Below are positions 4,280-50,125 of a stretch of 64,000 nt of DNA, piece by piece. Location: assembly GCA_038883335.1 (NCBI GenBank), contig JAVZMI010000001.1, forward strand, positions 51,696 to 115,695, written 5' to 3'. Numbering within the stretch: the stretch's first letter is position 1; each line of letters starts with the position of its first letter. The notes under the pieces were generated by a model. That model worked only from the letters and a program-made list of their open reading frames with translations. It searched no databases and was not told where the DNA came from. Source of the DNA: Candidatus Bathyarchaeia archaeon (GTDB taxonomy: Archaea; Thermoproteota; Bathyarchaeia; Hecatellales; Hecatellaceae). A program made the position numbers and the translations under genes.

Positions 4280-5251
4280 TTGCTTGCCACGAATTTAAAA
4301 TTGAAGAAAACAGTGGTGGGAAGTTTCCCGAAGCAACCCCTACCAGTGCCCGACGCTATAAGATATCTTGCAGACCTGCAAATCCGCCATGGCATTAACC
4401 CTGTATCTGACGGGGAGCAACGTAACGATATGATTGGGTATTTTGACCAGATACCAGGTCTGGGGTGGTCTTCTCTCAGACTTTGCGTCTTAGACGAGAT
4501 ACATCCCATGGAACATACGGACGCCTTCTATAAAATAGAGGACTATCTCTTCCTCAGGAGGTATCTGGATGGAATCGGCAGTGGCGATGTGGGCATCAAG
4601 ACAGCCATAACAGGTCCCGTTACACTAGGTTTCACTTGCGCCGCTCATGGAGTTAAACACTACCAGGGAGTCTGTGACATTAATCTATATAGTGACCTTT
4701 CGAAGGCGTTGAAACCTATTATAGAGAGGTTGCTGGACCTTGGCGCGCATGTTCAGATAGATGAGCCTGGACTGTCGGCTGGGTACATGAATCCAAAGGT
4801 GGCTGTATCGATAATTAACGAGGTGCTCTCTGGTATCCGTGAGAGTTCGCTGGAAAGGTTAAGCGTACACGTCTGCGGTGATCTATCGAAAGTGCGTGGA
4901 TTACTTGACAGTTTTCTCGATCTCAGGCCAAAAATCCTGAGTCTTGCCTTCAGCGGTAGAGATGAGAGAAGGAATGCTCAGCTACTTTCTAGGGCGCATT
5001 TGGAGACCTCCCAGAAGAAGGTTGGGGTAGGATGCGTAGCTACCTCCACAGATGAAGTTGGGGAAGTCGAGGGCGTAGAAGAGATTATAAATAGGTTGGT
5101 AGATCTGGAAGAGAAGTTTGGTTTAGAGAATATAGCCTACTTCCATCCAGATTGTGGCTTTAAGAATTTATCAATCGAGGTAGCCTCCAAGATTTTGGAG
5201 AACATGGTAGCTGCGGTTGACATCCTAGCAAGTAGACTAAGTAGCCTTTAA
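4280..5251 (+). CDS. Cobalamin-independent methionine synthase (MetE C-terminal domain)-like protein
   Basis: 323 aa. The N-terminal KKTVVGSFPK motif and the length are typical of short archaeal MetE-like, UroD-fold proteins. Confidence 0.5.
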   Translation: MLATNLKLKKTVVGSFPKQPLPVPDAIRYLADLQIRHGINPVSDGEQRNDMIGYFDQIPGLGWSSLRLCVLDEIHPMEHTDAFYKIEDYLFLRRYLDGIGSGDVGIKTAITGPVTLGFTCAAHGVKHYQGVCDINLYSDLSKALKPIIERLLDLGAHVQIDEPGLSAGYMNPKVAVSIINEVLSGIRESSLERLSVHVCGDLSKVRGLLDSFLDLRPKILSLAFSGRDERRNAQLLSRAHLETSQKKVGVGCVATSTDEVGEVEGVEEIINRLVDLEEKFGLENIAYFHPDCGFKNLSIEVASKILENMVAAVDILASRLSSL

Positions 5252-29385: not shown

Positions 29386-30519
29386 ATGTGTGGAGAATTG
29401 CGCAGAATTATTCCAATAGCCCACCCCCTGATTGGAAGGGAGGAGATAGACGCTGTAACCTCCGTCTTGAAGAGCGGGATACTTACGAGCAAACATGGAG
29501 ACGGCCCCTATGTGAAAAGATTCGAAGAGACCTTTGCGAAGTACATCGGGGTCAAGTATGCTCTGACTATGAGTTCTGGAACGGCTGCCTTGCATGCCTC
29601 TCTCATGGCTGCAGAGGTGCAGAGTGGTGATGAGGTGATAGTTCCCAGTTTCGCTTTTGCTGCTGTCTCTGAGGCTGTAGTGCTTGCAGGAGCTAAACCA
29701 GTCTTCGTGGATATTGATCCACAAACTTTCTGCATGGATCCCTCCTCTTTCGAGTCAGCTATTACGAGTAAAACGCGTGCAGTCATTCCAGTGCACCTGT
29801 TTGGTCTCATGGCTGATATGGAGAAAATATGTGAAATCGCTAGGAAGCATGATATAATTATAATCGAAGACTGTGCTCAAGCTCATGGAGCTGCGTATAA
29901 TGGGAGGAAAGCTGGTTCCATAGGGGATTTCGGCTGCTTCAGCTTCTACGCGTCAAAGAATATGACTACAGGTGAAGGCGGTATGGTGACTGTGAACCGT
30001 AGAGAGTATGCGGAGGCTCTTGCGTCGATAAGGAACCATGGGGAAGGTAAGCTCTACAACAGCGAAAGAGTGGGTCATAACTATAGGATGTCTGAGGTTG
30101 CTGCCGCTATAGGTTATAACCAGCTTTTAAAACTTCCAAGGTTTAATGATGCGCGAAGGCGGAATGCGAATAAATTAACATCACTACTCGAGGCATCGGG
30201 GAAACTTATACTCCCTCAAGAGCCGCAGGGATACAGCCACAGCTGGTATGTTTATACTGTAAGGTTGAGGGGCAGTAGGGCTGGTGAGAGGGATAAGGTA
30301 GTAGATAAACTCGTAAATTCTGGAATCCAGGCTGCAGTCTACTATCGCACGCCACTTCACCTCTCGCCGTTGTATAGAAGGAGATATGGTTACAGACGTG
30401 GGGCACTACCAAAGACTGAGACTGCGGCGAGGCAGGTTTTCTCTCTCCCAGTCCACCCCGGGCTCACAGACGAAGACCTAGAGTTTATCGCTCAGAGGCT
30501 GAGTAAGGTAATCGATTAA
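29386..30519 (+). CDS. DegT/DnrJ/EryC1/StrS-family PLP-dependent sugar aminotransferase
   Basis: 377 aa with GDEVIVPSFAFAAVSEAV, the PLP-lysine region FSFYASKNMTTGEGGMV and HGEGKLYNSERVGHNYRMSE. Confidence 0.85.
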   Translation: MCGELRRIIPIAHPLIGREEIDAVTSVLKSGILTSKHGDGPYVKRFEETFAKYIGVKYALTMSSGTAALHASLMAAEVQSGDEVIVPSFAFAAVSEAVVLAGAKPVFVDIDPQTFCMDPSSFESAITSKTRAVIPVHLFGLMADMEKICEIARKHDIIIIEDCAQAHGAAYNGRKAGSIGDFGCFSFYASKNMTTGEGGMVTVNRREYAEALASIRNHGEGKLYNSERVGHNYRMSEVAAAIGYNQLLKLPRFNDARRRNANKLTSLLEASGKLILPQEPQGYSHSWYVYTVRLRGSRAGERDKVVDKLVNSGIQAAVYYRTPLHLSPLYRRRYGYRRGALPKTETAARQVFSLPVHPGLTDEDLEFIAQRLSKVID

Positions 30520-30766
30520 GTAATTGGCCAGTCTATCATTTAGACTACTCAGGAACTGATGATACAGAATAACGAGGAGGGGCATGTTACTGCATTAAAA
30601 ATTCCCAGTTATACTGAGTTTATGTAGGCGTCACATAGGTGCCTTCTAGGTTTGGTTTTTCGATTATCTTTATATGTTGGTTTGCGGTTATAGGGTAATC
30701 GGTGTCTCTTTCGCGGCTGCCCTCATCTTGGGGTTATCTTTGCTGGATAAGCCGCGTCTGAGGTCG

Positions 30767-30966
30767 GGATGCATAGCGAAAATCCCAACAAAGGGAATTG
30801 AAACTGTTGTAGACCCTGAAATTAAGACGCTCTACCGAAACTACGGATGCATAGCGAAAATCCCAACAAAGGGAATTGAAACTTTTAAATAAGCTTCAAT
30901 TGCGGTGTTTTGGCTCATTATCGCGGGGGGATGCATAGCGAAAATCCCAACAAAGGGAATTGAAAG
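30767..30966 (+). CRISPR. Orphan CRISPR mini-array with three 38-nt repeats (GGATGCATAGCGAAAATCCCAACAAAGGGAATTGAAAC) and two spacers (40 and 46 nt)
   Basis: The repeats lie at 30767-30804, 30845-30882 and 30929-30966. The last repeat ends G instead of C. The repeat ends in ATTGAAAC, the typical 8-nt 5' handle of Cas6-processed crRNA. No cas genes occur in the window. Confidence 0.6.
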
Positions 30967-31038
30967 ATATGGGAAAGGTTTAACCGTGAATTACACGCTA
31001 AAAAGCTTTATATTGCGATATTGTTCTTCGTTTTTTGT

Positions 31039-31210
31039 CCCGCGGTAGCTCAGCCTGGAAGAGCTTCCGATCCTCGTGAAATAGCTGGGGAGGAGATGCT
31101 GTAGAGTTTGCCCGACGGGTAGACCCACCAGCCTTCCAGGCCAACAGAAACCGGAGTGTCGCAGGCTCAAAACTTCCACCGCGAAGGTGAGAATCCTGCC
31201 CGCGGGACCA
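31039..31210 (+). tRNA. Intron-containing tRNA gene (pre-tRNA about 172 nt), identity unresolved
   Basis: The 5' end carries acceptor stem CCCGCGG, then U8A9 and the D-arm GCUC-AGCCUGGAA-GAGC. The 3' end carries ...GCAGG...CCUGC-CCGCGGG-A-CCA, a 7-bp acceptor complement with an encoded CCA. About 95 nt of extra sequence lies between the halves, probably one intron in the anticodon region and one in the T-loop. The anticodon could not be assigned by eye. Confidence 0.5.
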
Positions 31211-31211
31211 A

Positions 31212-31919
31212 TTAAACTATCAGAAATTCATCAAGACACCTTAGTACAGCTAAGAGATCCTTAACTTCATGATCCGGTCTAGTTTGATCCCGAAATACAC
31301 GCTCACCTCTTCTATTAACCCAAATAGCCTTAACCCCCACTGCCTTCGCGGGTAGGATGTCGTGGGTGAGGTTGTCTCCTATGGTGACAGTCTCTCCTGG
31401 CTGCGAGTTAGAGAACTCCAAGGCTTCGCTGTAGAAGCGCGGGTCACTCTTACGGTAGCCTAAGATTTTCTCCTCCAAGGCTAATTCAAAATACACCCTA
31501 GACCCGAACTTCTCGACGCATTCAACCTTCTCTTGAGCGTGGCTCCCGGTTGCCAAACAGAGTTTGTATCCACGATCCTTAAGCATGTTAAGGAAATGGA
31601 AGGTCTCAGGATAGAAGGTAGGATTCCTCCAACAGTCCACCTCAGCCTCATAGTAGCCTTCTAAGATGCGTCTAACAGAAGACCTGTCGTAGGGGATGCC
31701 GAGATACTTGAAGAGCAACTTGCAATGAAATTCCCCATCGTCATGCCTCTCCGGGTAGAACTCGTGGACAAGTTCCCTATGGATATAGTAACAGTAGAGC
31801 TCCCAAAGCTTTGCCCCGCTAATGGGGAGTATGCCTTCAAGCCGCTCAGCAAACTTTGAATCCGAGTTGTGAAGCGTATTATCGTAATCTAACAGCACAG
31901 TCTTGATGTGCCGAACCAT
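31212..31919 (-). CDS. HAD-superfamily hydrolase
   Basis: 235 aa with the N-terminal nucleophile motif LLDYDNTLH and the C-terminal TIGDNLTHDILPAKAVGVKAIWVNR (motifs III/IV). Confidence 0.7.
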   Translation of the reverse strand: MVRHIKTVLLDYDNTLHNSDSKFAERLEGILPISGAKLWELYCYYIHRELVHEFYPERHDDGEFHCKLLFKYLGIPYDRSSVRRILEGYYEAEVDCWRNPTFYPETFHFLNMLKDRGYKLCLATGSHAQEKVECVEKFGSRVYFELALEEKILGYRKSDPRFYSEALEFSNSQPGETVTIGDNLTHDILPAKAVGVKAIWVNRRGERVFRDQTRPDHEVKDLLAVLRCLDEFLIV

Positions 31920-39491: not shown

Positions 39492-40316
39492 TTAGACTAT
39501 AACCTCAATCGGCTGTTGACTCACCACACCACACCCACCAGTGTAATCTACTGCAGTTTCCATTACAGGCTTGTGAGGCTGGGATAAATTCATAGCTATA
39601 CAGTCTGTCTTCTCCACTATCAACTCAATAGCCCTTCTCCAAAGTGGAGATTCAGCCAAGCATGGGAGGTAAACCTCCAGAGTATACTTGGCTCCCTTCG
39701 CGGTCAGCTTGAAATACCTAGAACTTGACCTCTCCTCTACTATAAAGCTCTCAAAGACTAGATCGGAGATAATCTCACACAACCTATCATAATTAAGCCA
39801 AGTTCCTGGATGAGAACTAGCAACCAAACCTTCTGGAGACCGAATGGCCCTTTCAGCCTCCAAATATTTGAGACAGTTATAGATCCAAGCTGCGGATGGC
39901 TTCGACAAACATGTTGGAATTTTAGACGCTCTCTCCCGTCTTAGTATCAGGTAAAGAATGAGCCCCCTTAAGGCCTCTTGTATACCTGCAGGCTGGTTCA
40001 CTAAAGATTTTAAGCGCTGAACTTCTTCGCTGAGAGAATAATGACTCCCCCAGGTTCCGAAGGCCTTATCCCCATAATCCTTGATCCTAGATAGCCCTAA
40101 ACCCGGCTCACTAACTGATCCGTCATCACACAGCTCAGCCACTTGCACATAATCAAGCGACGGTCTGCCGTCAAGGCGGCTCTGTGCCATCGTTAAGGAC
40201 GCTCTCTCTGCAAGGAAGTGGAGCCCTACAAGATAGCTTGAGTAATTTAATGAGTAATTTATCATACGCAACAGACTTGACTGTCTACTTACGACTGGTT
40301 CAACGATGAACCACAC
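39492..40316 (-). CDS. Hypothetical protein
   Basis: 274 aa with no recognised motif. It sits in the same operon as the Lrp-like and PadR regulators. Confidence 0.3.
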   Translation of the reverse strand: MWFIVEPVVSRQSSLLRMINYSLNYSSYLVGLHFLAERASLTMAQSRLDGRPSLDYVQVAELCDDGSVSEPGLGLSRIKDYGDKAFGTWGSHYSLSEEVQRLKSLVNQPAGIQEALRGLILYLILRRERASKIPTCLSKPSAAWIYNCLKYLEAERAIRSPEGLVASSHPGTWLNYDRLCEIISDLVFESFIVEERSSSRYFKLTAKGAKYTLEVYLPCLAESPLWRRAIELIVEKTDCIAMNLSQPHKPVMETAVDYTGGCGVVSQQPIEVIV

Positions 40317-40321
40317 ATCGG

Positions 40322-40624
40322 TCAGTCTGTCTCTGTGAGTGGGGTTTTTTCACCTTGGAAGTGGGCTTCTCTAGAGTTTAAGTATATAAGCTTCAGCCTT
40401 GGGAAGACTTGTTTTAGACCAGCTGTCTCAAAATAACTGTCTCTGGATCCTAAGAGGGCGGTGTACTCTTTTTTAGGATCCAACCCAAGGTTATCAATTA
40501 TATCGTATCCTAATTCTTTCCCAAGTTCCATGGAGGCGAAAGCAACTTTCGTCGGGGATATACTTCGCCTTATGATTGTTATACATTTCCTAGCTACAGG
40601 CGACTTCGAGATGTAAATTTTCAT
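40322..40624 (-). CDS. Hypothetical protein
   Basis: 100 aa. It is the first gene of the minus-strand operon 40624->38425. Confidence 0.25.
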   Translation of the reverse strand: MKIYISKSPVARKCITIIRRSISPTKVAFASMELGKELGYDIIDNLGLDPKKEYTALLGSRDSYFETAGLKQVFPRLKLIYLNSREAHFQGEKTPLTETD

Positions 40625-40843
40625 TCAACATTCCTCTACGCAGCATTTTCTTTCCATTATTTTACGAGTATAGATCTATTATGAGGTTATTTATAAATTT
40701 TGTGCACGTATAACTAAAATAATTGAAAAATAATCTATTAAAATCAATATTTTTTTAAAATAGATGTTTTTTGAGGTTATTTTTTATGTTTTTAACTCTC
40801 GGGCTTCAGAAAATATAAATTCTGAATTCCTGAATATTATTAT

Positions 40844-41158
40844 GTGGCAAGGTTGTCCGAAGAGAACCTTTGGAGTCAACTTAGACTCCTATCTCAAAAG
40901 GATGTAAGAAGAGTTTTATGCGAACTTTGCTTAGCCCCTGGTAGGAAAATGTCGCTTAAAGACCTAGCCTCTAGAACAGGGATCCCTTACACAACCGTAT
41001 ACCAGAAGATACAAGCAATGAGATCCGCAAGCCTGATTGATATGAAAGGAACGAAAAGAGAAGGCTTCACTGTCTATTTGAGAGACTTCGAACTACCGCC
41101 ACTTACCCCTGAAAGAATATGCGAGTTGGAGGGACGACCACTACCCAACATATTATGA
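40844..41158 (+). CDS. Winged-helix transcriptional regulator (ArsR/MarR-like)
   Basis: 104 aa with the HTH MSLKDLASRTGIPYTTVYQKIQAMRSASLI. Confidence 0.5.
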   Translation: MARLSEENLWSQLRLLSQKDVRRVLCELCLAPGRKMSLKDLASRTGIPYTTVYQKIQAMRSASLIDMKGTKREGFTVYLRDFELPPLTPERICELEGRPLPNIL

Positions 41159-41823
41159 GAGGGCAGATCTTGAAAGGAAACTATGTGGTCGTAGGGCTCA
41201 CCAATGAAAATGTTTGGAAAGAAGCTTTAAGATGCATTCGTAGAAATGGAGAATATATTACGGACCCTCAAAATCTAGAGAAAACCCAGGAGGTTCTAAA
41301 TCTAATCACCAGCATATTGAAGCCCTCTAACACGCTGCCTAGAGCATTCTCTAGAGACACGAAGATCAACGATCACCCCCACCTATTAGAAGGTCTAGTC
41401 AGACCTATCCCCGGCTTTAGCCCAGGAACACATCTCTGGGAATGGGCACTCCCTAGAGGACGACTGAATCAGATCGAAGATAACGTGACGAAAGTTCTCA
41501 GAAACAATCTACTCAGCCGCCGTGCAGTGGCATTAACTTTCCATCCAGGGATGGACTCTGAGCACATCCTCAACCCCCGCTATAGCTTCCCAGCTATACA
41601 GATTGTTGACTTCAAGTATAGGGAAGGGAGTCTACATCTGACCGCCTACCTGAGGTCTTGTGACATATATTCTTGGTGGCCGATAAACGTCGTCCAAGCC
41701 TACAGACTCCTCAAGAAAGTAGGAGAGAAACTTGACTTAAGTATAGGAACGCTCACATTGATGATCAGTAGCGCCCATGTCAAAGCAAGAAACCTAAAAA
41801 GGATTGAAACAATACTAGTTTAA
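41155..41823 (+). CDS. Thymidylate synthase (ThyA-fold) homolog lacking the catalytic cysteine
   Basis: 222 aa. It aligns by eye to E. coli ThyA. RRAVALTFHPG matches RRIIVSAWN, AYLRSCDIYSWWPINVVQAYRLL matches [22 protein letters not shown], and GTLTLMISSAHV matches GDFVWTGGDTHLY. The nucleophile motif P-C-H is replaced by P-R-Y. The start was taken at the internal ATG 41155; the ORF begins at 41119. Confidence 0.6.
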   Translation: MRGQILKGNYVVVGLTNENVWKEALRCIRRNGEYITDPQNLEKTQEVLNLITSILKPSNTLPRAFSRDTKINDHPHLLEGLVRPIPGFSPGTHLWEWALPRGRLNQIEDNVTKVLRNNLLSRRAVALTFHPGMDSEHILNPRYSFPAIQIVDFKYREGSLHLTAYLRSCDIYSWWPINVVQAYRLLKKVGEKLDLSIGTLTLMISSAHVKARNLKRIETILV

Positions 41824-42107
41824 CTTAGAAGTTTCAAACTGATGGAAAATTCTACTAAAAAAATAGGGGTATACATTCACCTTTTCCAATTTTTCTATTA
41901 GGAGTGGGGGGTTCTGGGGGAAATAAATAAAGTTGACAATTACCCAACAGTTTATCAACCTCATTTTAAATAATTAAAGAAATGGTGAGAAAGCTTGGCT
42001 AAGTCGAGGTCGACATATTGGGTTTTCCCCTACGCTAATGTTGTGGTTAAAACCCAAGAGCGGCAAGAGCGGAAGTAACCCCGTTCCCCCTATCCTTCCA
42101 CCAGCCT

Positions 42108-42818
42108 CTACTTCACTGGGTGATACCGAACCTCGAAACCTACCTCTTTTTTGGGTGGAAAGAAATAGTCACGCATTTTGATCAGGATGTTAACCATTTC
42201 TTTCGCCCAAGGCAACAGTTTAACCTCTTCACCAGTCTCTTCCAACCTTCGGAGACAGTTAACGAACCGCTCAGCCTCTTCTCTTCCTACATCAGAACTA
42301 TGGGGGGAAGGAGACGTGGAAACCTTCCATTCGACCCAAAACAGTAGAGGCACATAGTCGGAAACTTCGAGCTCTTCAAAGTTCACCTTTAACAGGATGC
42401 CGTAGAAGACCTCGGGGAATGTTTTTCTCAAAAACTTGAACAGTGCGTCTACTGCAGTTTTTAACGGCTCATGGCTTACTGGGAAATTCTCCATCAGAGT
42501 ATAGTTGACGTTATGTTTCTCTTCGACCTGTGCCACCTTGGAGATGGGTAGGAGCCCCCACCTTAGAAGGTTAACCACACCATGTTGAGTTAAACCGTAA
42601 AGTTCACGTCTACGACCCCAAGAGCCCTTCTCTCTCACTGGAAGAGCGAAGCCTTTTTTCTCTATGAACCGAGCCCATTTTGACATGAAAATGTGCATAT
42701 AGCCCCTACCAACTATGTCTGCCAGCTCACTCCAACAGAGAGGACCTCTCTCAATAAGCCTCAAAAAGGCTTCTTTTGCTTTTTTATGTCTTAAAAGAGG
42801 AGATTGACCAACCAACAT
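42108..42818 (-). CDS. Hypothetical protein with a possible N-terminal wHTH
   Basis: 236 aa. The N-terminus LRLIERGPLCWSELADIVG is HTH-like. The rest was not recognised. Confidence 0.3.
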   Translation of the reverse strand: MLVGQSPLLRHKKAKEAFLRLIERGPLCWSELADIVGRGYMHIFMSKWARFIEKKGFALPVREKGSWGRRRELYGLTQHGVVNLLRWGLLPISKVAQVEEKHNVNYTLMENFPVSHEPLKTAVDALFKFLRKTFPEVFYGILLKVNFEELEVSDYVPLLFWVEWKVSTSPSPHSSDVGREEAERFVNCLRRLEETGEEVKLLPWAKEMVNILIKMRDYFFPPKKEVGFEVRYHPVK

Positions 42819-42896
42819 AATGGTTCACTAGATCCTAAGATTCACTATACCATTACTATTATATAAGGTTTTCGCTCATTTTTAATTTGACCAACT

Positions 42897-43100
42897 ATGG
42901 ATAAAGGAAAAGGGGTTAATCGACTCATCTATCTTCCAAACCAGATAGATGAAATCGTAGAAACCACTAGAAGAAGACTTGGCTATTCGAGAAGTAGCTT
43001 CTACCGTTACGCCGTAACGCTCCTTCTCCAAGACCTCAACATTCTAACGAAGACCGTGAACGCTTCAATCGAGAAGGAGGGGGAAACGAAAAATGTCTGA
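42897..43100 (+). CDS. Ribbon-helix-helix (CopG/Arc/MetJ-like) DNA-binding protein
   Basis: 67 aa. VNRLIYLPNQIDEIVETTRRRLGYSRSSFYRYAV fits the beta-strand plus two helices of an RHH. Such proteins are common in archaeal plasmids and viruses. Confidence 0.45.
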   Translation: MDKGKGVNRLIYLPNQIDEIVETTRRRLGYSRSSFYRYAVTLLLQDLNILTKTVNASIEKEGETKNV

Positions 43101-43348
43101 GACCAACCCACGCCTAGAACTGTGCCCAGAATGCGGAAGAAAGCTCAGGGAACTCCTTTTGCCGAAGCTCGAGCGGCTAGAAGCACTTCTCAAGTCGAGA
43201 TAACAAAGAAAAAGAGGAGGAAAAACGTGGTAAATAAGTATAAACATAAAGAGGCTTTTAAACGTTTCTTTAAGGAATTATGCCCCTTCGCCATCGAAGC
43301 CAATGGATCCGTTAACTGCTTCGCCATCGAAGACGCCATCGGGTTCTG

Positions 43349-45709
43349 TTGTTGCCCACGTCTCCTCAACGCTCTGAGAGAAACCCCCCCATCAACCAAA
43401 AAGGTGAAACGGAGATGAGCGAAGCGGCTAACCAAACTTGTAAAACATGCGGAGCGATCATGGAGCGGGGGAAGTGCCCCAAATGCACACCTTTTGAAGA
43501 GTTTATTAACCTTCCACTGGCGTCATGTGTGAATTGCGGTCACTATTTAGGCTTAGAGTGCCCCAGAGCTTCAATACACCAAGAGAATAGGCGAACCCGC
43601 ACCTTCACTGCAGACGACTATAAAATCTGTGAAAAGTGGACGTTAGCCATCAGAACTGCGGATGGCACAGTTTATAGACCTCTGGTGAACAAGGGAATCT
43701 CCGCTCATCCAGCCTCTCTCTTCCATAGCGGAGAAAACGGCATCATAGTTGGTGAGCTGACCTTCGCCCGTTCAGAAGTGGAAAAAACAAAGAAGGAAGA
43801 CCCAATAAAGACTAGAGAGATAACCGTTTATCTTTTTTGGTGCCACCACCACAACCACGAGCTCCAACTTTACTTTAAATCGCTCAGTGCAGTGGACGCC
43901 ATTCCCTATGGTGATAAAGAGATCTACCTCGAGAAGGATAACCTTGTGAAAGACCCAATTCAGACGTTGATACCGTTAGAGACTGTGGAGCGGGTTGCGG
44001 CTAGCCCTGAAGAGGCAAACAAAGAAGCGGAGTTCCCCGCAATTTTCAGACAGGTAAAGACAGAGCTCAGACGTTTTCTCAACCTAGAGTGGGATCCACG
44101 GCTTTACGATTTATTGGCATGTTACATTATCGCAACATACTTCTTCGACGCATTCCAAACGTTCCCATGGCTTTATTTCTATGGCTTTCAGGGATGCGGA
44201 AAAACAAGAGGAGCCCTAACGGTCACATATATGGCTAGACACGGTCACATGGTCACAAAACCGAGTGACGCTTCCATCTTCCGACTATGCCACGCCATCA
44301 AGCCCACCTTATGTGTGGACGAGGGACTGTTAGGACGGTCAGCTTGGAGTTTCGCCCGATCCACATTCAAGAAAGGCGTCAAGGTTCCACGAGTCGAGAA
44401 GACCCCACGAGAAGAGTTCGTTATTTCGCTCTTCGACTTGTACATGCCACTAGTCTTCGCTTCAACTAAGAAGCCCACTGAAGCGGGGGGGTTGAATGCG
44501 GATGAGGCACGTGCAATATTCATCCACATGGAACGAGCTCGAGACCCTATAGGTCGGGATCCCACGCCAGAAGACTTTGCCGCTCTAAGAGATCGGCTCT
44601 ACATGTTGCGGCTCTTCAAGGCTAAATGTGTCGTCGAGACGTCTAAGAACATTAATGTTCCGTTTCTGGGACATGAACGAGAAATATGGACGCCCATCTT
44701 CACGATTGCCAACTTAGTTGGGAAGGACGTTCTCTCTTCTCTCTATAAACTAGCAAACGACCTGTACGCTTCAAAGTTTGTAGAGTTAAATGTGAAAGAG
44801 AAGACAATACTTGACGCCATAGCCCTCCTATTCAAAGAAACGAACGAAAAAATTGTGTGTTTCACACCTTCTTCTCTTCAAGCGTACATCAAAACTGTGC
44901 TTATAGAAAGCGGAGAGTACGACGAACTCCACTTTCCAAAGATATGGAACGTGTATCTCATAGGCAGGCTCCTTTCAAGGATGAAACTCACACCCAAACG
45001 GGACACGGCTCGAAAATACTATATCACCCAGCCTCAGTTCGCCAAGCTTGAAAAACAATTTGGTATAGAGCTCGACGTTTTCGACGTTTTCGACGTTAAT
45101 GTGGAAGAACCATCTACCCCCACTTCAGACCCCAATACCCTATCCCTAAAATTAACGTCGAATTCGTCGAATTCGTCGAACGATAAAAAAGAAAGCTTAG
45201 ACAACGCCTCTTTAAACGAAAAAACCTTAGAAAAAGGCGAATTTAGAGATAGTGTTAAAAATAAAGCTTCTCAACCTGAAATAGAAGCTAAAAAAGACGA
45301 ACAGACCGCTCTAGAGAGTGAAAGTTTCGACGTTTTCGACGTTTTCGACGTTAATGTGGAAGAACCCCCTACCCCCACTTCAGACCCCAATACCCTATCC
45401 CTAAAATTAACGTCGAATTCGTCGAATTCGTCGAACGACGAGAGGGGGAACGGCTCTCATGGTGGCTTTAATGATGTTTCTTGCGGCACTTCTAACAGTG
45501 GTTCTGTTGGCGTTTCTAGTGAGGTTTCTAGTTGCACTGTAGAGAAGCACCACTGTCTCACAACGGAGGGTAGTGAACCTCAACCGATGGTCAGTGGAGT
45601 ACCAGGTCTCCCACCAAGGTTCAAATGTGAGATCTGTGGACGGAAGTTCCGTTTCCCCTACGATGTGCTCTCACATAAGCAAACCGACCACGGTTTAAAG
45701 GTGGTCTAA
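43349..45709 (+). CDS. Element-encoded Zn-finger/P-loop NTPase (putative replication helicase or initiator) with a C-terminal tandem-repeat region and a C2H2 zinc finger
   Basis: 786 aa. The N-terminal Zn-ribbons are CKTCG...CPKC and CVNCGH...C. Walker A is GFQGCGKT and Walker B is LCVDEG. It is followed by two copies of FDVFDVFDVNVEEP(S/P)TPTSDPNTLSLKLTSNSSNSSND and a terminal C2H2 finger FKCEICGRKFRFPYDVLSHKQTDH. Confidence 0.55.
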   Translation: MLPTSPQRSERNPPINQKGETEMSEAANQTCKTCGAIMERGKCPKCTPFEEFINLPLASCVNCGHYLGLECPRASIHQENRRTRTFTADDYKICEKWTLAIRTADGTVYRPLVNKGISAHPASLFHSGENGIIVGELTFARSEVEKTKKEDPIKTREITVYLFWCHHHNHELQLYFKSLSAVDAIPYGDKEIYLEKDNLVKDPIQTLIPLETVERVAASPEEANKEAEFPAIFRQVKTELRRFLNLEWDPRLYDLLACYIIATYFFDAFQTFPWLYFYGFQGCGKTRGALTVTYMARHGHMVTKPSDASIFRLCHAIKPTLCVDEGLLGRSAWSFARSTFKKGVKVPRVEKTPREEFVISLFDLYMPLVFASTKKPTEAGGLNADEARAIFIHMERARDPIGRDPTPEDFAALRDRLYMLRLFKAKCVVETSKNINVPFLGHEREIWTPIFTIANLVGKDVLSSLYKLANDLYASKFVELNVKEKTILDAIALLFKETNEKIVCFTPSSLQAYIKTVLIESGEYDELHFPKIWNVYLIGRLLSRMKLTPKRDTARKYYITQPQFAKLEKQFGIELDVFDVFDVNVEEPSTPTSDPNTLSLKLTSNSSNSSNDKKESLDNASLNEKTLEKGEFRDSVKNKASQPEIEAKKDEQTALESESFDVFDVFDVNVEEPPTPTSDPNTLSLKLTSNSSNSSNDERGNGSHGGFNDVSCGTSNSGSVGVSSEVSSCTVEKHHCLTTEGSEPQPMVSGVPGLPPRFKCEICGRKFRFPYDVLSHKQTDHGLKVV
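45072..45438. repeat. Two 112-nt near-identical direct repeats (45072-45183 and 45327-45438, period 255 nt) inside the 786-aa ORF, with embedded micro-repeats (tcgacgtttt x2.5; tcgaattcg x2)
   Basis: The copies were aligned directly. They differ only in ccatct versus ccccct. They encode the duplicated low-complexity protein segment. Confidence 0.8.
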
Positions 45710-46657
45710 ATGCGGAGAGAAGACTTCTGGTTTGAGTGGTTCGGCTTGTTCGGCAGAGAGGTTGGTAACCCGTTTCGGTTCTTCGTAGACAACCCTATAG
45801 ATTTCGTCAAGTTTGTTGAGAAATGTGAAGCGGCGAAGTCTCCAGTCTTCATGTCAGTGAACCATTATCGGGATCGAGACACGGTTTACGCTCTCGACAA
45901 GCTTTTCTTCGATTTTGACAACGCAACAGAGCCTGAGAAAGCCATCTATGAGGCTCTCCAGTTCGCAGAGATTTTAAAACGGTTCTACCATGCGGAGCCC
46001 TTAATCGTTCGCTCAGGTCTCAAAGGTGCGGGTGTCTACGTTTTCTTTCCACAAGCCATAACTGGAGCCCCCGAAGACTTAGCAGAGGTCTATCGCAAAG
46101 TCGCCAGCCTCATCTTGAAGGGTCTCCAGTTCTCCACGTTAGACCATCAGGTTCTGGGGGACGTTAAACGGCTAAGTCGGGTTCCTTATACACGCCACGA
46201 GAAGAGCGGTCAAATGTGCATCCCCATAAACGAGAAAGGAGTGGAAGTCAACCTGAGCGGGGAAGACTTGGCGAAAATCAGAGAGAGAAGCCCCCTACCC
46301 GCTCACATGCTCAAACTTGCATGGCACCACATCTTCTTGGAGCGGAAGGTGAGAGCGGGGGAAGGAAACCGCAACCAAGCCCCCCCTTTCAATAAGATTA
46401 GAACACCAGTTCAAGACCTCATATTGTTAGCTAAGGCTGGAGCCCACCTTTCCCACCACGGATACCTAGCCATACTCTTCGAACTCATCAACAACGGTTA
46501 CACAGACGACCAGATCCTTTCCCTCTTTAGAACGCTCTTCAAATCCAAGTTTAACGAGAAAGAGACCCGCTACTTCATCACGCATGCCCGAAAGAAACGC
46601 TACCTACCCTTCAGCATCTCACGGGTAAAACATGAACTAAATCTACTCTCACCTTAG
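45710..46657 (+). CDS. Archaeo-eukaryotic primase (AEP/prim-pol) superfamily protein
   Basis: 315 aa. It has the catalytic acidic motif LFFDFDN (hhhDhD), SGLKGAGVYVFF (SGxRG-like motif II) and LSRVPYTRHEKSG (motif III). Its start abuts the stop of the upstream NTPase gene. Confidence 0.6.
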   Translation: MRREDFWFEWFGLFGREVGNPFRFFVDNPIDFVKFVEKCEAAKSPVFMSVNHYRDRDTVYALDKLFFDFDNATEPEKAIYEALQFAEILKRFYHAEPLIVRSGLKGAGVYVFFPQAITGAPEDLAEVYRKVASLILKGLQFSTLDHQVLGDVKRLSRVPYTRHEKSGQMCIPINEKGVEVNLSGEDLAKIRERSPLPAHMLKLAWHHIFLERKVRAGEGNRNQAPPFNKIRTPVQDLILLAKAGAHLSHHGYLAILFELINNGYTDDQILSLFRTLFKSKFNEKETRYFITHARKKRYLPFSISRVKHELNLLSP

Positions 46658-46669
46658 GGGGACAGGCAT

Positions 46670-46972
46670 ATGAAGAAACATGTTCAACCATGCGGAAGAG
46701 GCAAAACTAAGCCTCAGACCCCTACCCTCCAAACGAAAAAACCCCCCGAAAAAACCGTGAAACCCGAACCGAACAAGAAGCGGAGAAGAGAAAAGAGAGC
46801 CCGCACACCAGTAGAATACCTCGTAGCATTCGAGAACGCCAACCTCATAGTGGAAGCCTCTTTCGCTACACCACCAAATAGAGCCGCACATAAAATTTTC
46901 CAGATTCAACAAGGTCTCCGCAAGTTCAACAGAAGCACCCGCACAGTGAAGAGAAAACTTGGCATAGTATAA
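46670..46972 (+). CDS. Small lysine/arginine-rich protein, hypothetical
   Basis: 100 aa, very basic and proline-rich at the N-terminus (KKPPEKTVKPEPNKKRRREKRAR). It may be nucleic-acid binding. Confidence 0.25.
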   Translation: MKKHVQPCGRGKTKPQTPTLQTKKPPEKTVKPEPNKKRRREKRARTPVEYLVAFENANLIVEASFATPPNRAAHKIFQIQQGLRKFNRSTRTVKRKLGIV

Positions 46973-47171
46973 CCCCCCGCTTCACGCTTGCGAGGTGAAA
47001 AAGATGGGTAAGAAACTCAAGAAGAAAGATTAAACCGTGAAGGTTAGAGGCACCCCCTCATCCCCCAACCTTTTTTCTCTCTTCAACCATATGCCTTAAG
47101 GAGAGGTCTCATCCAGTATGGTTGGGGAACCCATACAACCAGTTCATCCACGTCTCACTCAACTCACTCTG

Positions 47172-47244
47172 TCATATTATAATATGACAAAGTGTCTTAA
47201 ACTTGAAAAGTATGGATATTGAACAAAAGAATGATTTTGTTCAA
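47172..47244. promoter_or_regulatory. Two perfect palindromes in the element intergenic region: tgtcatattataatatgaca (20 bp) and ttgaacaaaa-gaatga-ttttgttcaa (10-bp arms)
   Basis: Both were read directly from the sequence. They lie in a 410-nt non-coding stretch downstream of the convergent gene pair 46670..46972 and int. Confidence 0.35.
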
Positions 47245-47385
47245 TGGGTCTCAGTCTTCCCATACAGAGTCGGCTTTTTAGTGTAGATTGAGAACCAATG
47301 TTCCCCTTCTACACATGTGATCCTGTTATTGTTAGTTAAGGTAAACTGGTTATTTTAGAGGCTTCTATTAGTTAAAATAAACTGG

Positions 47386-48633
47386 TTAAGTTAGAAGCTT
47401 CCTTATCTCCGCAACCTCTTCCAACGCCCTGTTAATCCTTCCAGTGAGCTCCGTGTTCTCCAACTCCAACCTTGCCATCCTGCTCTTAAGCTCCAAGTTT
47501 TCTGCAGAGAGGTTCTCTATCACCTTCTGGAGGCTTTGGATGCGTTCATCCACCTTGGCGTCAACCTTCCTCTCAATCTCCGACGGGTCGACTGGAGGGG
47601 GGGTTATGCTCAGTAAGCGTTCCCGTTCGAGATACATCTTCCTGAGGCTCTCAAACTGGAGCCCTTTATACGCTTCCGCCATCTCTCCGATTGCATGCCC
47701 TAACCAGAAGTCAACTATGGTGTCTGGTACGCCTGAGTTAATCATTATGCTACCGAAGCTTTCACGCAAGGCATGGGGACTTAACGGGTTGATGTCTCTA
47801 CCGTTATTATAGGGGTCTATGAAGCCCGCCTTTAATGCCACCTCTCTCAACATGTTCTGGACTAGGTGTGGTTGAAGTGGAGCCCCATGTGGTCGTTCCC
47901 TTTGGAATAGTGGCGAACCGTCTTGAAGCTTCACACCTCTGGCTTCAAGGTCTCGGAGGTAGACTTTGACTGCTTCTATTGCGTCACGCCCAAGGAATGT
48001 GAAATATTCCACTCCAGTTTTCGGTCGGTAGAGGTCTAGCTTGAGGGGGATCTCTCCAGACTCGAGACCTCTCCGTATGTCTCCATATTTGAGACTGCAC
48101 AGTGTCGAGACATCCATCCCGCTTTGAAACATGGTGAGAATGACGGCTTTGTCACGGGGGTTCCTTGCATGATCCACCAACAACTTGACCTGACTAGAGC
48201 TCAACCTCATCCTTCGGTTGGTTACCTTCGGTTTGGGAAGCCTGTAGCGGCCCTTAAGGCGCACTTCAACGTCGAAAGTCGAGTAGAAGCTTCTTATGGC
48301 GGTTATGTAGAGGTTTGCGGCTTTATCGCTCAAACCCTTCTTGACTTCTGTATGTTCGCATCTTCCACGCCTTTTTATGGGGTAATCCTTTTTCAAATAT
48401 TGGTAGAACCCGACTATCCTGTTGAGGACTATGCCACGCCTTTGGCGTATGTCTCTGGTTTGGTCTTCTACGGCTTCGTCGATGAGTTGGCTTGCGGTTA
48501 GACCTGTGAAGGCTAGGTATGCTCTGATGGCGGTTTTGTAGCTTGCTTTGGTAGACGGTTTAGTTACGGGGTCAAGCCACCTTGATATGGCGGGGTCTTC
48601 TAAGTTTATCAGCTCAATTTGTGGAGACGACAT
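47386..48633 (-). CDS. int: Tyrosine recombinase/integrase (phage-integrase family), full length
   Basis: 415 aa with an N-terminal SAM-like domain. The C-terminal catalytic domain has R...HALRESFGS (H-x-x-R)...GHAIGEMAEAYKG with a terminal Tyr region. The gene is not split, which points to a pNOB8-type integrase. Confidence 0.8.
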   Translation of the reverse strand: MSSPQIELINLEDPAISRWLDPVTKPSTKASYKTAIRAYLAFTGLTASQLIDEAVEDQTRDIRQRRGIVLNRIVGFYQYLKKDYPIKRRGRCEHTEVKKGLSDKAANLYITAIRSFYSTFDVEVRLKGRYRLPKPKVTNRRMRLSSSQVKLLVDHARNPRDKAVILTMFQSGMDVSTLCSLKYGDIRRGLESGEIPLKLDLYRPKTGVEYFTFLGRDAIEAVKVYLRDLEARGVKLQDGSPLFQRERPHGAPLQPHLVQNMLREVALKAGFIDPYNNGRDINPLSPHALRESFGSIMINSGVPDTIVDFWLGHAIGEMAEAYKGLQFESLRKMYLERERLLSITPPPVDPSEIERKVDAKVDERIQSLQKVIENLSAENLELKSRMARLELENTELTGRINRALEEVAEIRKLLT

Positions 48634-48853
48634 TTACTCCTCCTCATATCCTTTCTGGAAAATAAATAACTTCATTGAATTTAAAGGTTATGTTACAGGT
48701 TAAACTAGACAATACTCAAATAAATCAGGTCGGATGTTCGATGAATACCTATGTAATCCTATACTGAATGATTAAGTTTAAGCCTTTTTGATTATTCCCT
48801 CGGTGGGGAAAATGTAATATGCTAATACGTCGTTAATTCGTATTTGAGTCGAA

Positions 48854-49090
48854 ATGAGAGCCTACGTGTTAATCACCACCAAACCAGGGACCTCCGAAGA
48901 AGTCCTCAGACAGATCAAGACTACACGGGAGATCAAAGGTGTTATTCTGGCCGACTCGGTCTACGGTCGGTTTGATGCAGTAGTCGTGATCGAGGCGGAA
49001 AACCTAGAGACCATAACCGACATCATATACAAGGTGATAGAGAAATACCCGAACATAACTCACACCGAAACACTTTTGACCTTATTCTGA
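48854..49090 (+). CDS. Stand-alone RAM (Lrp/AsnC C-terminal ligand-binding) domain protein
   Basis: 78 aa. MRAYVLITTKPGTSEEV...GRFDAVVVIEAENLETITDIIYKVIEKYPNITHTETL fits the RAM beta-alpha-beta-beta-alpha-beta pattern. Confidence 0.55.
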   Translation: MRAYVLITTKPGTSEEVLRQIKTTREIKGVILADSVYGRFDAVVVIEAENLETITDIIYKVIEKYPNITHTETLLTLF

Positions 49091-49982: not shown

Positions 49983-50125
49983 GCCCCGGTCAAGCCTCGG
50001 TTCCCTCGGTGAAGGGTGAGAGAGCGCAGCATGGTTGGCGCGTGGCCTTGGTAAAATATTAAAGCAAATTGATTGCACCTACAAAAAGGCTAAGGTCGCG
50101 GGTTCAAATCCCGCCCGGGGCTCCA
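49983..50125 (+). tRNA. tRNA-Thr(GGU) with two introns: a non-canonical one near positions 8/9 (about 32 nt, 49991-50022) and a canonical 37/38 intron (33 nt, 50054-50086)
   Basis: The deduced mature tRNA is GCCCCGG-UA-GCGC-AGCAUGGUUG-GCGC-G-UGGCC-UUGGUAA-GGCUA-AGGUC-GCGGG-UUCAAAU-CCCGC-CCGGGGC-U-CCA. The acceptor has 7 bp, and the D, anticodon (U33, GGU, A37) and T arms are canonical. The discriminator is U and the CCA is encoded. Confidence 0.75.

Follow-up and report, generated by a model that had tools for sequence, protein, structure and literature searches.

Three direct repeats of the 38-nt unit GGATGCATAGCGAAAATCCCAACAAAGGGAATTGAAAC lie at positions 30767–30804, 30845–30882 and 30929–30966 of the window, by which we mean the whole 64-kb stretch of Bathyarchaeia DNA that was analyzed. 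Upstream of the repeats, the plus strand encodes a PLP enzyme, a homoserine dehydrogenase, a phosphoglycerate mutase, a radical-SAM enzyme, and a DegT-family aminotransferase (29386–30519). Downstream, a tRNA-Tyr(GTA) gene on the plus strand (31039–31210) is located outside the array at a distance of 72 nt, and the minus strand encodes a HAD hydrolase (31212–31919), a Hel308-type helicase, MCM, and GINS. An intron-containing tRNA next to the repeats had already been noticed when the DNA was read without database searches (referred to as the sequence-only reading), and this gene was recognized by ARAGORN, after splicing, as a tRNA-Tyr(GTA) with three introns.

Repeats 1 and 2 are identical, and repeat 3 differs from them at the last base alone (C to G). 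The sequence-only reading had described three copies at 30767–30966, perfect except for the final base of the last one, and the copies were re-found at the same coordinates. While these positions stood, the lengths of 38 nt for the repeats and of 40 and 46 nt for the spacers had to be revised by comparison with related arrays. Because the nucleotide preceding GATGCAT is variable in the closest related arrays, the repeat is most likely 37 and not 38 nt long, and the G which stands ahead of GATGCAT in all three window copies may be a chance match. With this boundary, repeat 1 (GATGCATAGCGAAAATCCCAACAAAGGGAATTGAAAC) spans positions 30768–30804, repeat 2, which has the same sequence, spans 30846–30882, and repeat 3, which ends in G, spans 30930–30966, all on the plus strand. 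Spacer 1 (TGTTGTAGACCCTGAAATTAAGACGCTCTACCGAAACTACG) has 41 nt and occupies positions 30805–30845, and spacer 2 (TTTTAAATAAGCTTCAATTGCGGTGTTTTGGCTCATTATCGCGGGGG) has 47 nt and occupies positions 30883–30929, likewise on the plus strand. The two spacers show no relation to each other; identical spacers had been named by the sequence-only reading as a sign against a CRISPR array. The locus thus combines near-identical repeats, with a length inside the 23–50 nt range of CRISPR repeats, and unique spacers of similar length. A search that tolerated up to three mismatches detected no further copies of the repeat in the 64-kb window and no match in any of 100 shuffles. Judged by its sequence features, the stretch 30767–30966 is a genuine CRISPR array. 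Arrays can collapse in metagenome assemblies, and the true size of this array may differ from three repeats.

The 3′ 22-mer of the repeat (ATCCCAACAAAGGGAATTGAAA) was retrieved from JGI metagenomes in 28 contigs, and single arrays among them contain as many as 26 copies. An alignment of all copies resolved several sub-families that have the 3′ half in common and diverge in the 5′ half. The closest sub-family (Ga0272449_1009287, _1078816, _1036769, and Ga0207433_10090886; loci L006, L017, L019, and L022) has the repeat GATGCATAAGGAAAATCCCAACAAAGGGAATTGAAAG, which matches the window repeat at 34 of 37 positions. The differences are two internal bases (AAGG in the sub-family, AGCG in the window) and the last base, which is C and not G in two of the window copies. 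The arrays of this sub-family have the same hairpin, the same handle, and the same leader module at the same distance as the window array. Their 33 spacers are 34–46 nt long (mean 40 nt), compared to 41 and 47 nt in the window. In contrast to the window array with its three repeats and no cas neighbor, they contain 5 to 17 or more repeats and are located beside csx14, cmr, or csa genes, with types III-B and I-A represented. The exact window variant of the repeat (…ATAGCG…, final C) was found nowhere else in the species-representative genomes and metagenome contigs.

In some of the 28 contigs, arrays of the repeat family adjoin type III-B, I-A, or I-D genes, cas6, and csa1-cas1-cas4. Locus L006 contains a csx14/Crn1-like gene followed by cmr4, cmr5, cmr1, cmr6, and cas10, and in L022 the array is placed between csx14 on one side and csa5 and cas7/csa2 on the other. 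In L018, the order is cmr4-cmr5-cmr1-cmr6-cas10-cmr3, array, and a CARF-phosphoesterase gene. Locus L007 carries csa1-cas1-cas4, type I-D genes, and cas6, and L020 carries cas1, cas6, csa1, cas1, and cas4. Based on this linkage, the window repeat is placed in a CRISPR repeat family that is of class 1 and associated with Cas6. The proposal that the repeat is of the Cas6-processed class 1 type, which the sequence-only reading had derived from its 3′ end, is therefore supported at the level of the family, whose long arrays adjoin class 1 effectors, cas6, and adaptation genes. A larger non-CRISPR repeat family had been considered as a finding that would speak against a CRISPR array; the larger family that was found is a CRISPR family.

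As RNA, the repeat forms a hairpin of 4 bp (UCCC/GGGA), and the 8 nt 3′ of it, AUUGAAAC, make up a tail. Among the CRISPR-DR families of Rfam, no match to the window array reached the gathering level. The best match was CRISPR-DR17 with 23.9 bits against a gathering threshold of 42, and DR45, DR60, and DR10 scored lower. CRISPR-DR17 represents the 24–25-nt repeats of the Sulfolobales, to which the 3′ 25 nt of the window repeat (GAAAATCCC…GGGAATTGAAAG) are alike at that sub-threshold score; the window repeat has 12 additional nt on the 5′ side. The repeat of S. solfataricus is GATTAATCCCAAAAGGAATTGAAAG. A 28-mer repeat core had no match in the species-representative genomes, where the 22-mer retrieved only two lone repeat-like units, both of them in other MAGs and in surroundings that lacked arrays, the leader module, and cas genes.

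Solitary repeat units of the family outside arrays were observed in L003, L006, L014, L021, L028, L029, L032, and L033, and several of them lie directly 3′ of ORFs. The lone repeat of L006 is located between csx14 and cmr4 inside the type III-B locus (minus-strand position 5223), just upstream of cmr4. In L003 and L028, the same 38-nt “spacer” follows 3′ of a repeat, and the 5′ half of the L028 repeat is replaced. The units of L032 and L033 are found in housekeeping contexts of other MAGs and are not accompanied by the leader module. These solitary units could be regulatory, could be repeat units of the anti-CRISPR type, or could be products of decay.

The leader of the window array (30520–30767, plus strand) fills the non-coding space between the DegT stop codon and the first repeat. 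It was identified from the ORF map and by aligning it with five leaders of arrays that are cas-linked or related. The alignment revealed a conserved module at 30660–30701 (plus strand), which consists of the half-site TCGATTAT, the TATA-like box CTTTATAT (30668–30675), a stretch of about 20 nt, and the half-site TAATCG. In its general form, the pattern reads TCGATTAT, two bases, TTATA, about 20 nt, and TAATCG, with an inverted repeat that brackets the TATA-like box. Both half-sites are invariant in the leader alignment. The window module starts 108 nt ahead of the 37-nt repeat 1. In the window, L004, L006, L018, and L022, the arrangement TCGATTATNNTTATA…TAATCG precedes the first repeat by 107–108 nt, and the same spacing applies to L008, as read from the gap-free alignment. 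The window contains this pattern a single time, 100 shuffles did not contain it at all, and among 33 fetched loci it was found only at the leaders of L004, L006, L008, L018, and L022. Within the module, the window leader is 65–67% identical to the others, whereas identity over the remaining 64 nt is 22–30% and thus at the random level. A 16-nt identity, TTCGATTATCTTTATA, which forms part of the module, is common to the window, L006, and L022. Since the module is kept at a fixed distance from the first repeat in six independent leaders, the mini-array retains the leader and the promoter of its family. This leader is one-sided, bears a promoter, and is conserved in the family, as is characteristic of CRISPR arrays.

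We read the module, on the strength of this sequence pattern, as a putative array promoter flanked by a palindrome to which a regulator would bind. A regulator specific to CRISPR loci most likely binds the palindrome that surrounds the TATA box. An analogous case is S. islandicus, whose leaders contain a distal motif (−143 to −94) that is bound by Csa3a and is required for CRISPR transcription and for efficient adaptation (PMC5587795, PMC9456107). The window leader resembles this arrangement by having a distal regulator-type motif near the promoter, a likeness of position. No csa3 gene was seen in the window, where the only “Csa3” match covered just the winged helix-turn-helix (wHTH) part of the profile and lay in a 110-aa protein of an integrase element. 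A search for Csa3, CARF3, WYL, or CasR candidates gave only weak matches, all of which came from this one protein (40826–41155) and spanned only the HTH part of the profiles, and the candidate was rejected as cas-associated. In L006 and L022, a csx14/Crn1-like (ring-nuclease-like) gene is oriented divergently from the array leader, and its start is separated from the first repeat by about 200 nt, which places the module of these two loci in a shared divergent promoter region.

The position of the leader, the ATTGAAAC/G ending, and the occurrence of the variant repeat at the far end together indicate transcription of the array on the plus strand. Repeat 3 is then the leader-distal and oldest copy, and spacer 1, given an upstream leader, is the most recently acquired one. 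A final G is found in all repeats listed for the related arrays except for two variants, the degenerate terminal repeat of L022 and the lone unit of L032. During spacer acquisition, new repeats are copied from the leader-proximal repeat. According to the simplest reading of the C in repeats 1 and 2 and the G in the oldest copy, the G was replaced by C in repeat 1 and at least one acquisition in place followed. At least one spacer was thus probably acquired at this locus, an argument from a single site in the sequence.

No cas genes were detected among 68 ORFs of the window, of which 58 were scanned by PADLOC without any core cas match, and the ten nearest to the array were assigned by Pfam to housekeeping genes. 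Likewise, a phmmer comparison of 224 ORFs from cas-bearing related contigs with the six-frame ORFs of the window yielded no cas homologue; the only matches were to translated repeats and generic helicase similarity. The earlier statement that no cas gene occurs within 30 kb on either side therefore holds for the window by all three approaches.

Archaeal and bacterial genomes commonly contain “orphan” or distal arrays, which lie far from cas genes and are served in trans, as in Sulfolobus with its multiple loci. The orphan arrays of Anabaena reportedly are an example of such service by Cas6 and effectors encoded elsewhere. The window array is similar in that it bears a leader, is far from cas genes, and has a class 1 repeat of the Cas6 type, and service in trans would apply to it by extension. 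On balance, we lean toward the interpretation that it is a small working array, which is transcribed from its leader and depends on Cas6 and class 1 effectors supplied in trans from other loci. Transcription would start at the TATA box of the module, roughly 65–70 nt ahead of repeat 1, and would proceed rightward through the array. The UCCC/GGGA hairpin would be bound by a Cas6 from another locus of the genome, and cleavage 8 nt before the repeat end would give rise to two crRNAs, each with the 5′ handle AUUGAAAC. These crRNAs would be loaded by class 1 effectors (type III-B Cmr, I-A, or I-D) acting in trans. A regulator on the palindrome may co-regulate the window array with others, analogous to Csa3a on Sulfolobus leaders. 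Transcription, processing, the trans-acting cas genes, and regulator binding are predictions from sequence throughout.

The conservation of the surrounding genes places the array in a lineage-specific context. Relatives with a 79% identical DegT protein keep the upstream block of radical SAM, a small ORF, and DegT. After DegT, they have a 93-nt gap (L034:3537–3629) followed by AIRC, MoaA, ScpB, ScpA, and SMC, and contain no array. On the other side, relatives at 65% identity in Hel308 have GINS-MCM-Hel308 alone in common with the window. A relative with 76% identity, which stems from the sample of L034, has GINS-MCM-Hel308-HAD on a contig that ends in the HAD gene. No orthologous array was found among the Hel308 and DegT relatives compared. 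As the block downstream of DegT differs, a synteny breakpoint coincides with the array and the tRNA-Tyr gene, and the array is specific to its lineage.

The absence of the array at the same position in the relatives with a 79% identical DegT would also be consistent with a recent remnant, that is, with the loss of the cas genes by the organism or a recent ancestor. The leader and the three repeats would then be without function but still undecayed. We regard this explanation as possible but doubtful. It is in line with the very small size of the array, the lack of cas genes in the window, and the lone family units in housekeeping contexts of two other MAGs. Close relatives of the L006 Cmr4 (54–98% identical) were retrieved only from unbinned metagenomes, and the search gave no match labelled Bathyarchaeia in NCBI; this lack of a close Cmr4 from an NCBI Bathyarchaeia MAG is weak negative evidence which points in the same direction. 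Moreover, type I and/or III cas loci were reported from just over one-fifth of Bathyarchaeia MAGs, and most of these MAGs are thus without cas loci (PMC10541130). However, the repeats are essentially perfect, and the leader module is intact in its half-sites and TATA box, which counts against a long period of neutral decay. The derived C common to repeats 1 and 2 also suggests that acquisition took place after the mutation. A functional array served in trans remains our preferred interpretation.

A further scenario, which we consider unlikely, is that the genome is devoid of cas genes and has nevertheless kept the array and its leader. In this case, the array might be served by CRISPR components of mobile elements or viruses, or the module might be the operator of an undescribed array regulator by which cas-distant arrays are co-controlled. 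Viruses of Bathyarchaeia are known to encode CRISPR components. Mini-arrays carried by such viruses have repeats identical to those of the host (PMC10541130).

The same mini-arrays with host-identical repeats (PMC10541130) could be taken to suggest that the window array arrived with a virus or plasmid upon integration at the tRNA gene, and that it serves in conflicts between elements or recruits the Cas proteins of the host. Mini-arrays are also found in Sulfolobus viruses. Virus-borne mini-CRISPR arrays have been described (Medvedeva et al. 2019, Nat Commun 10:5204, as cited in PMC10541130), and the Chiyouviridae of Bathyarchaeia are a further example; such arrays have one to few spacers and a host-type repeat in common with the window array. 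A tRNA gene at a distance of 72 nt, the synteny breakpoint, and an integrase element about 10 kb away would also fit such an origin. Nevertheless, we regard it as very improbable. The non-coding DNA between the two flanking housekeeping genes amounts to only about 520 nt, and no integrase, capsid, or replication gene adjoins the array. Neither the repeat core nor its 3′ 22-mer had a match in the 2.9 million viral contigs of IMG/VR, and the leader is that of chromosomal, cas-adjacent arrays. The integrase element is a separate locus, and neither spacer matches its DNA. Unlike the virus-borne mini-arrays, the window array is thus chromosomal, located between housekeeping genes, and equipped with a repeat that is absent from IMG/VR. 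A virus or plasmid mini-array was rejected as largely refuted by the DegT flank on one side, by tRNA-Tyr, HAD, Hel308, MCM, and GINS on the other, and by the absence of the repeat from viral contigs.

A regulatory CRISPR-like RNA (a CreA antitoxin-like RNA or a self-targeting guide), whose spacers would steer a Cas complex to partially matching host promoters, is in our view a highly unlikely explanation: the array is short and isolated and lone family repeats inside cas loci (L006, between csx14 and cmr4) may be regulatory derivatives, but the window repeats are full-length and non-degenerate, partial matches of the spacers in the 64-kb window do not exceed 13 nt, no small toxin gene or cas operon is adjacent, and the degenerate repeats, promoter-matching pseudo-spacer, and cas locus of CreTA-type RNAs are not found here.

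The sequence-only reading had suggested an 8-kb element in the window as an obvious candidate target of the spacers. This suggestion was not borne out: neither spacer matches the element at 40.6–48.9 kb, and the longest match anywhere in the 64-kb window, the element included, has 13 nt. The spacers also had no match in loci L001–L029. The wider comparison that had been proposed, with genomic and viral sequences, likewise yielded no target in the window, in IMG/VR, or in phage and plasmid collections. Four 20-mers covering both spacers had no match in IMG/VR, and blastn against the phage and plasmid collections returned chance matches only (E ≥ 3). A lack of matches is usual for archaeal spacers.

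The region of the window at about 40300–49000 looks like an integrated mobile element. It encodes the 110-aa wHTH protein (40826–41155), a ThyA-like protein (41113–41820), a 797-aa protein (43316–45706), a PriL-like protein (45710–46654), and, on the minus strand, a tyrosine integrase (47389–48633). The only Rfam tRNA match of the window is a tRNA-like sequence on the plus strand at 50045–50122, which scored 30.3 bits and is barely above the threshold. Being located about 1.4 kb beyond the integrase gene, it may mark an att site.

Since archaea commonly have small arrays at a distance from cas genes, the window array matters little if taken alone. It does assign a 37-nt repeat family linked to types III-B, I-A, and I-D to a Bathyarchaeia chromosome, and its two spacers could link an uncultured Bathyarchaeia lineage to its viruses once better viromes exist. 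The palindrome-plus-TATA module, which is sharply conserved at a fixed distance in the leaders of the repeat family, is a candidate binding site of a CRISPR regulator. Together with the three-intron tRNA-Tyr, this module is a mildly notable by-product of the analysis.

The tRNA-Tyr(GTA) gene is composed of exons at 31039–31069, 31098–31104, 31150–31171, and 31194–31210. The introns between them occupy 31070–31097 (28 nt, position 30/31), 31105–31149 (45 nt, position 37/38), and 31172–31193 (22 nt, position 59/60). They were located by brute-force deletion combined with ARAGORN, and the bulge-helix-bulge (BHB) motifs were judged by eye. In the unspliced sequence 31039–31210, no tRNA was detected by ARAGORN or Rfam, although acceptor, D, and T stems with three interruptions could be discerned in it. 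The spliced form is a 77-nt tRNA-Tyr(GTA) with C1-G72, A73, and an encoded CCA end, which is recognized by ARAGORN. The gene thus has the features of a multi-intron archaeal tRNA, with introns bounded by BHB motifs (as judged by eye) and a cloverleaf upon their removal. In the T-loop of the mature tRNA (CTCAAAT), position 54 is C, where T is usual. The gene has its own TATA box, CTTTATAT, at 31006–31013. A run of six T (cgttttttg; window positions 31027–31036) is located downstream of this TATA box and directly 5′ of the tRNA, and could be an oligo-T terminator for a CRISPR transcript arriving from upstream.
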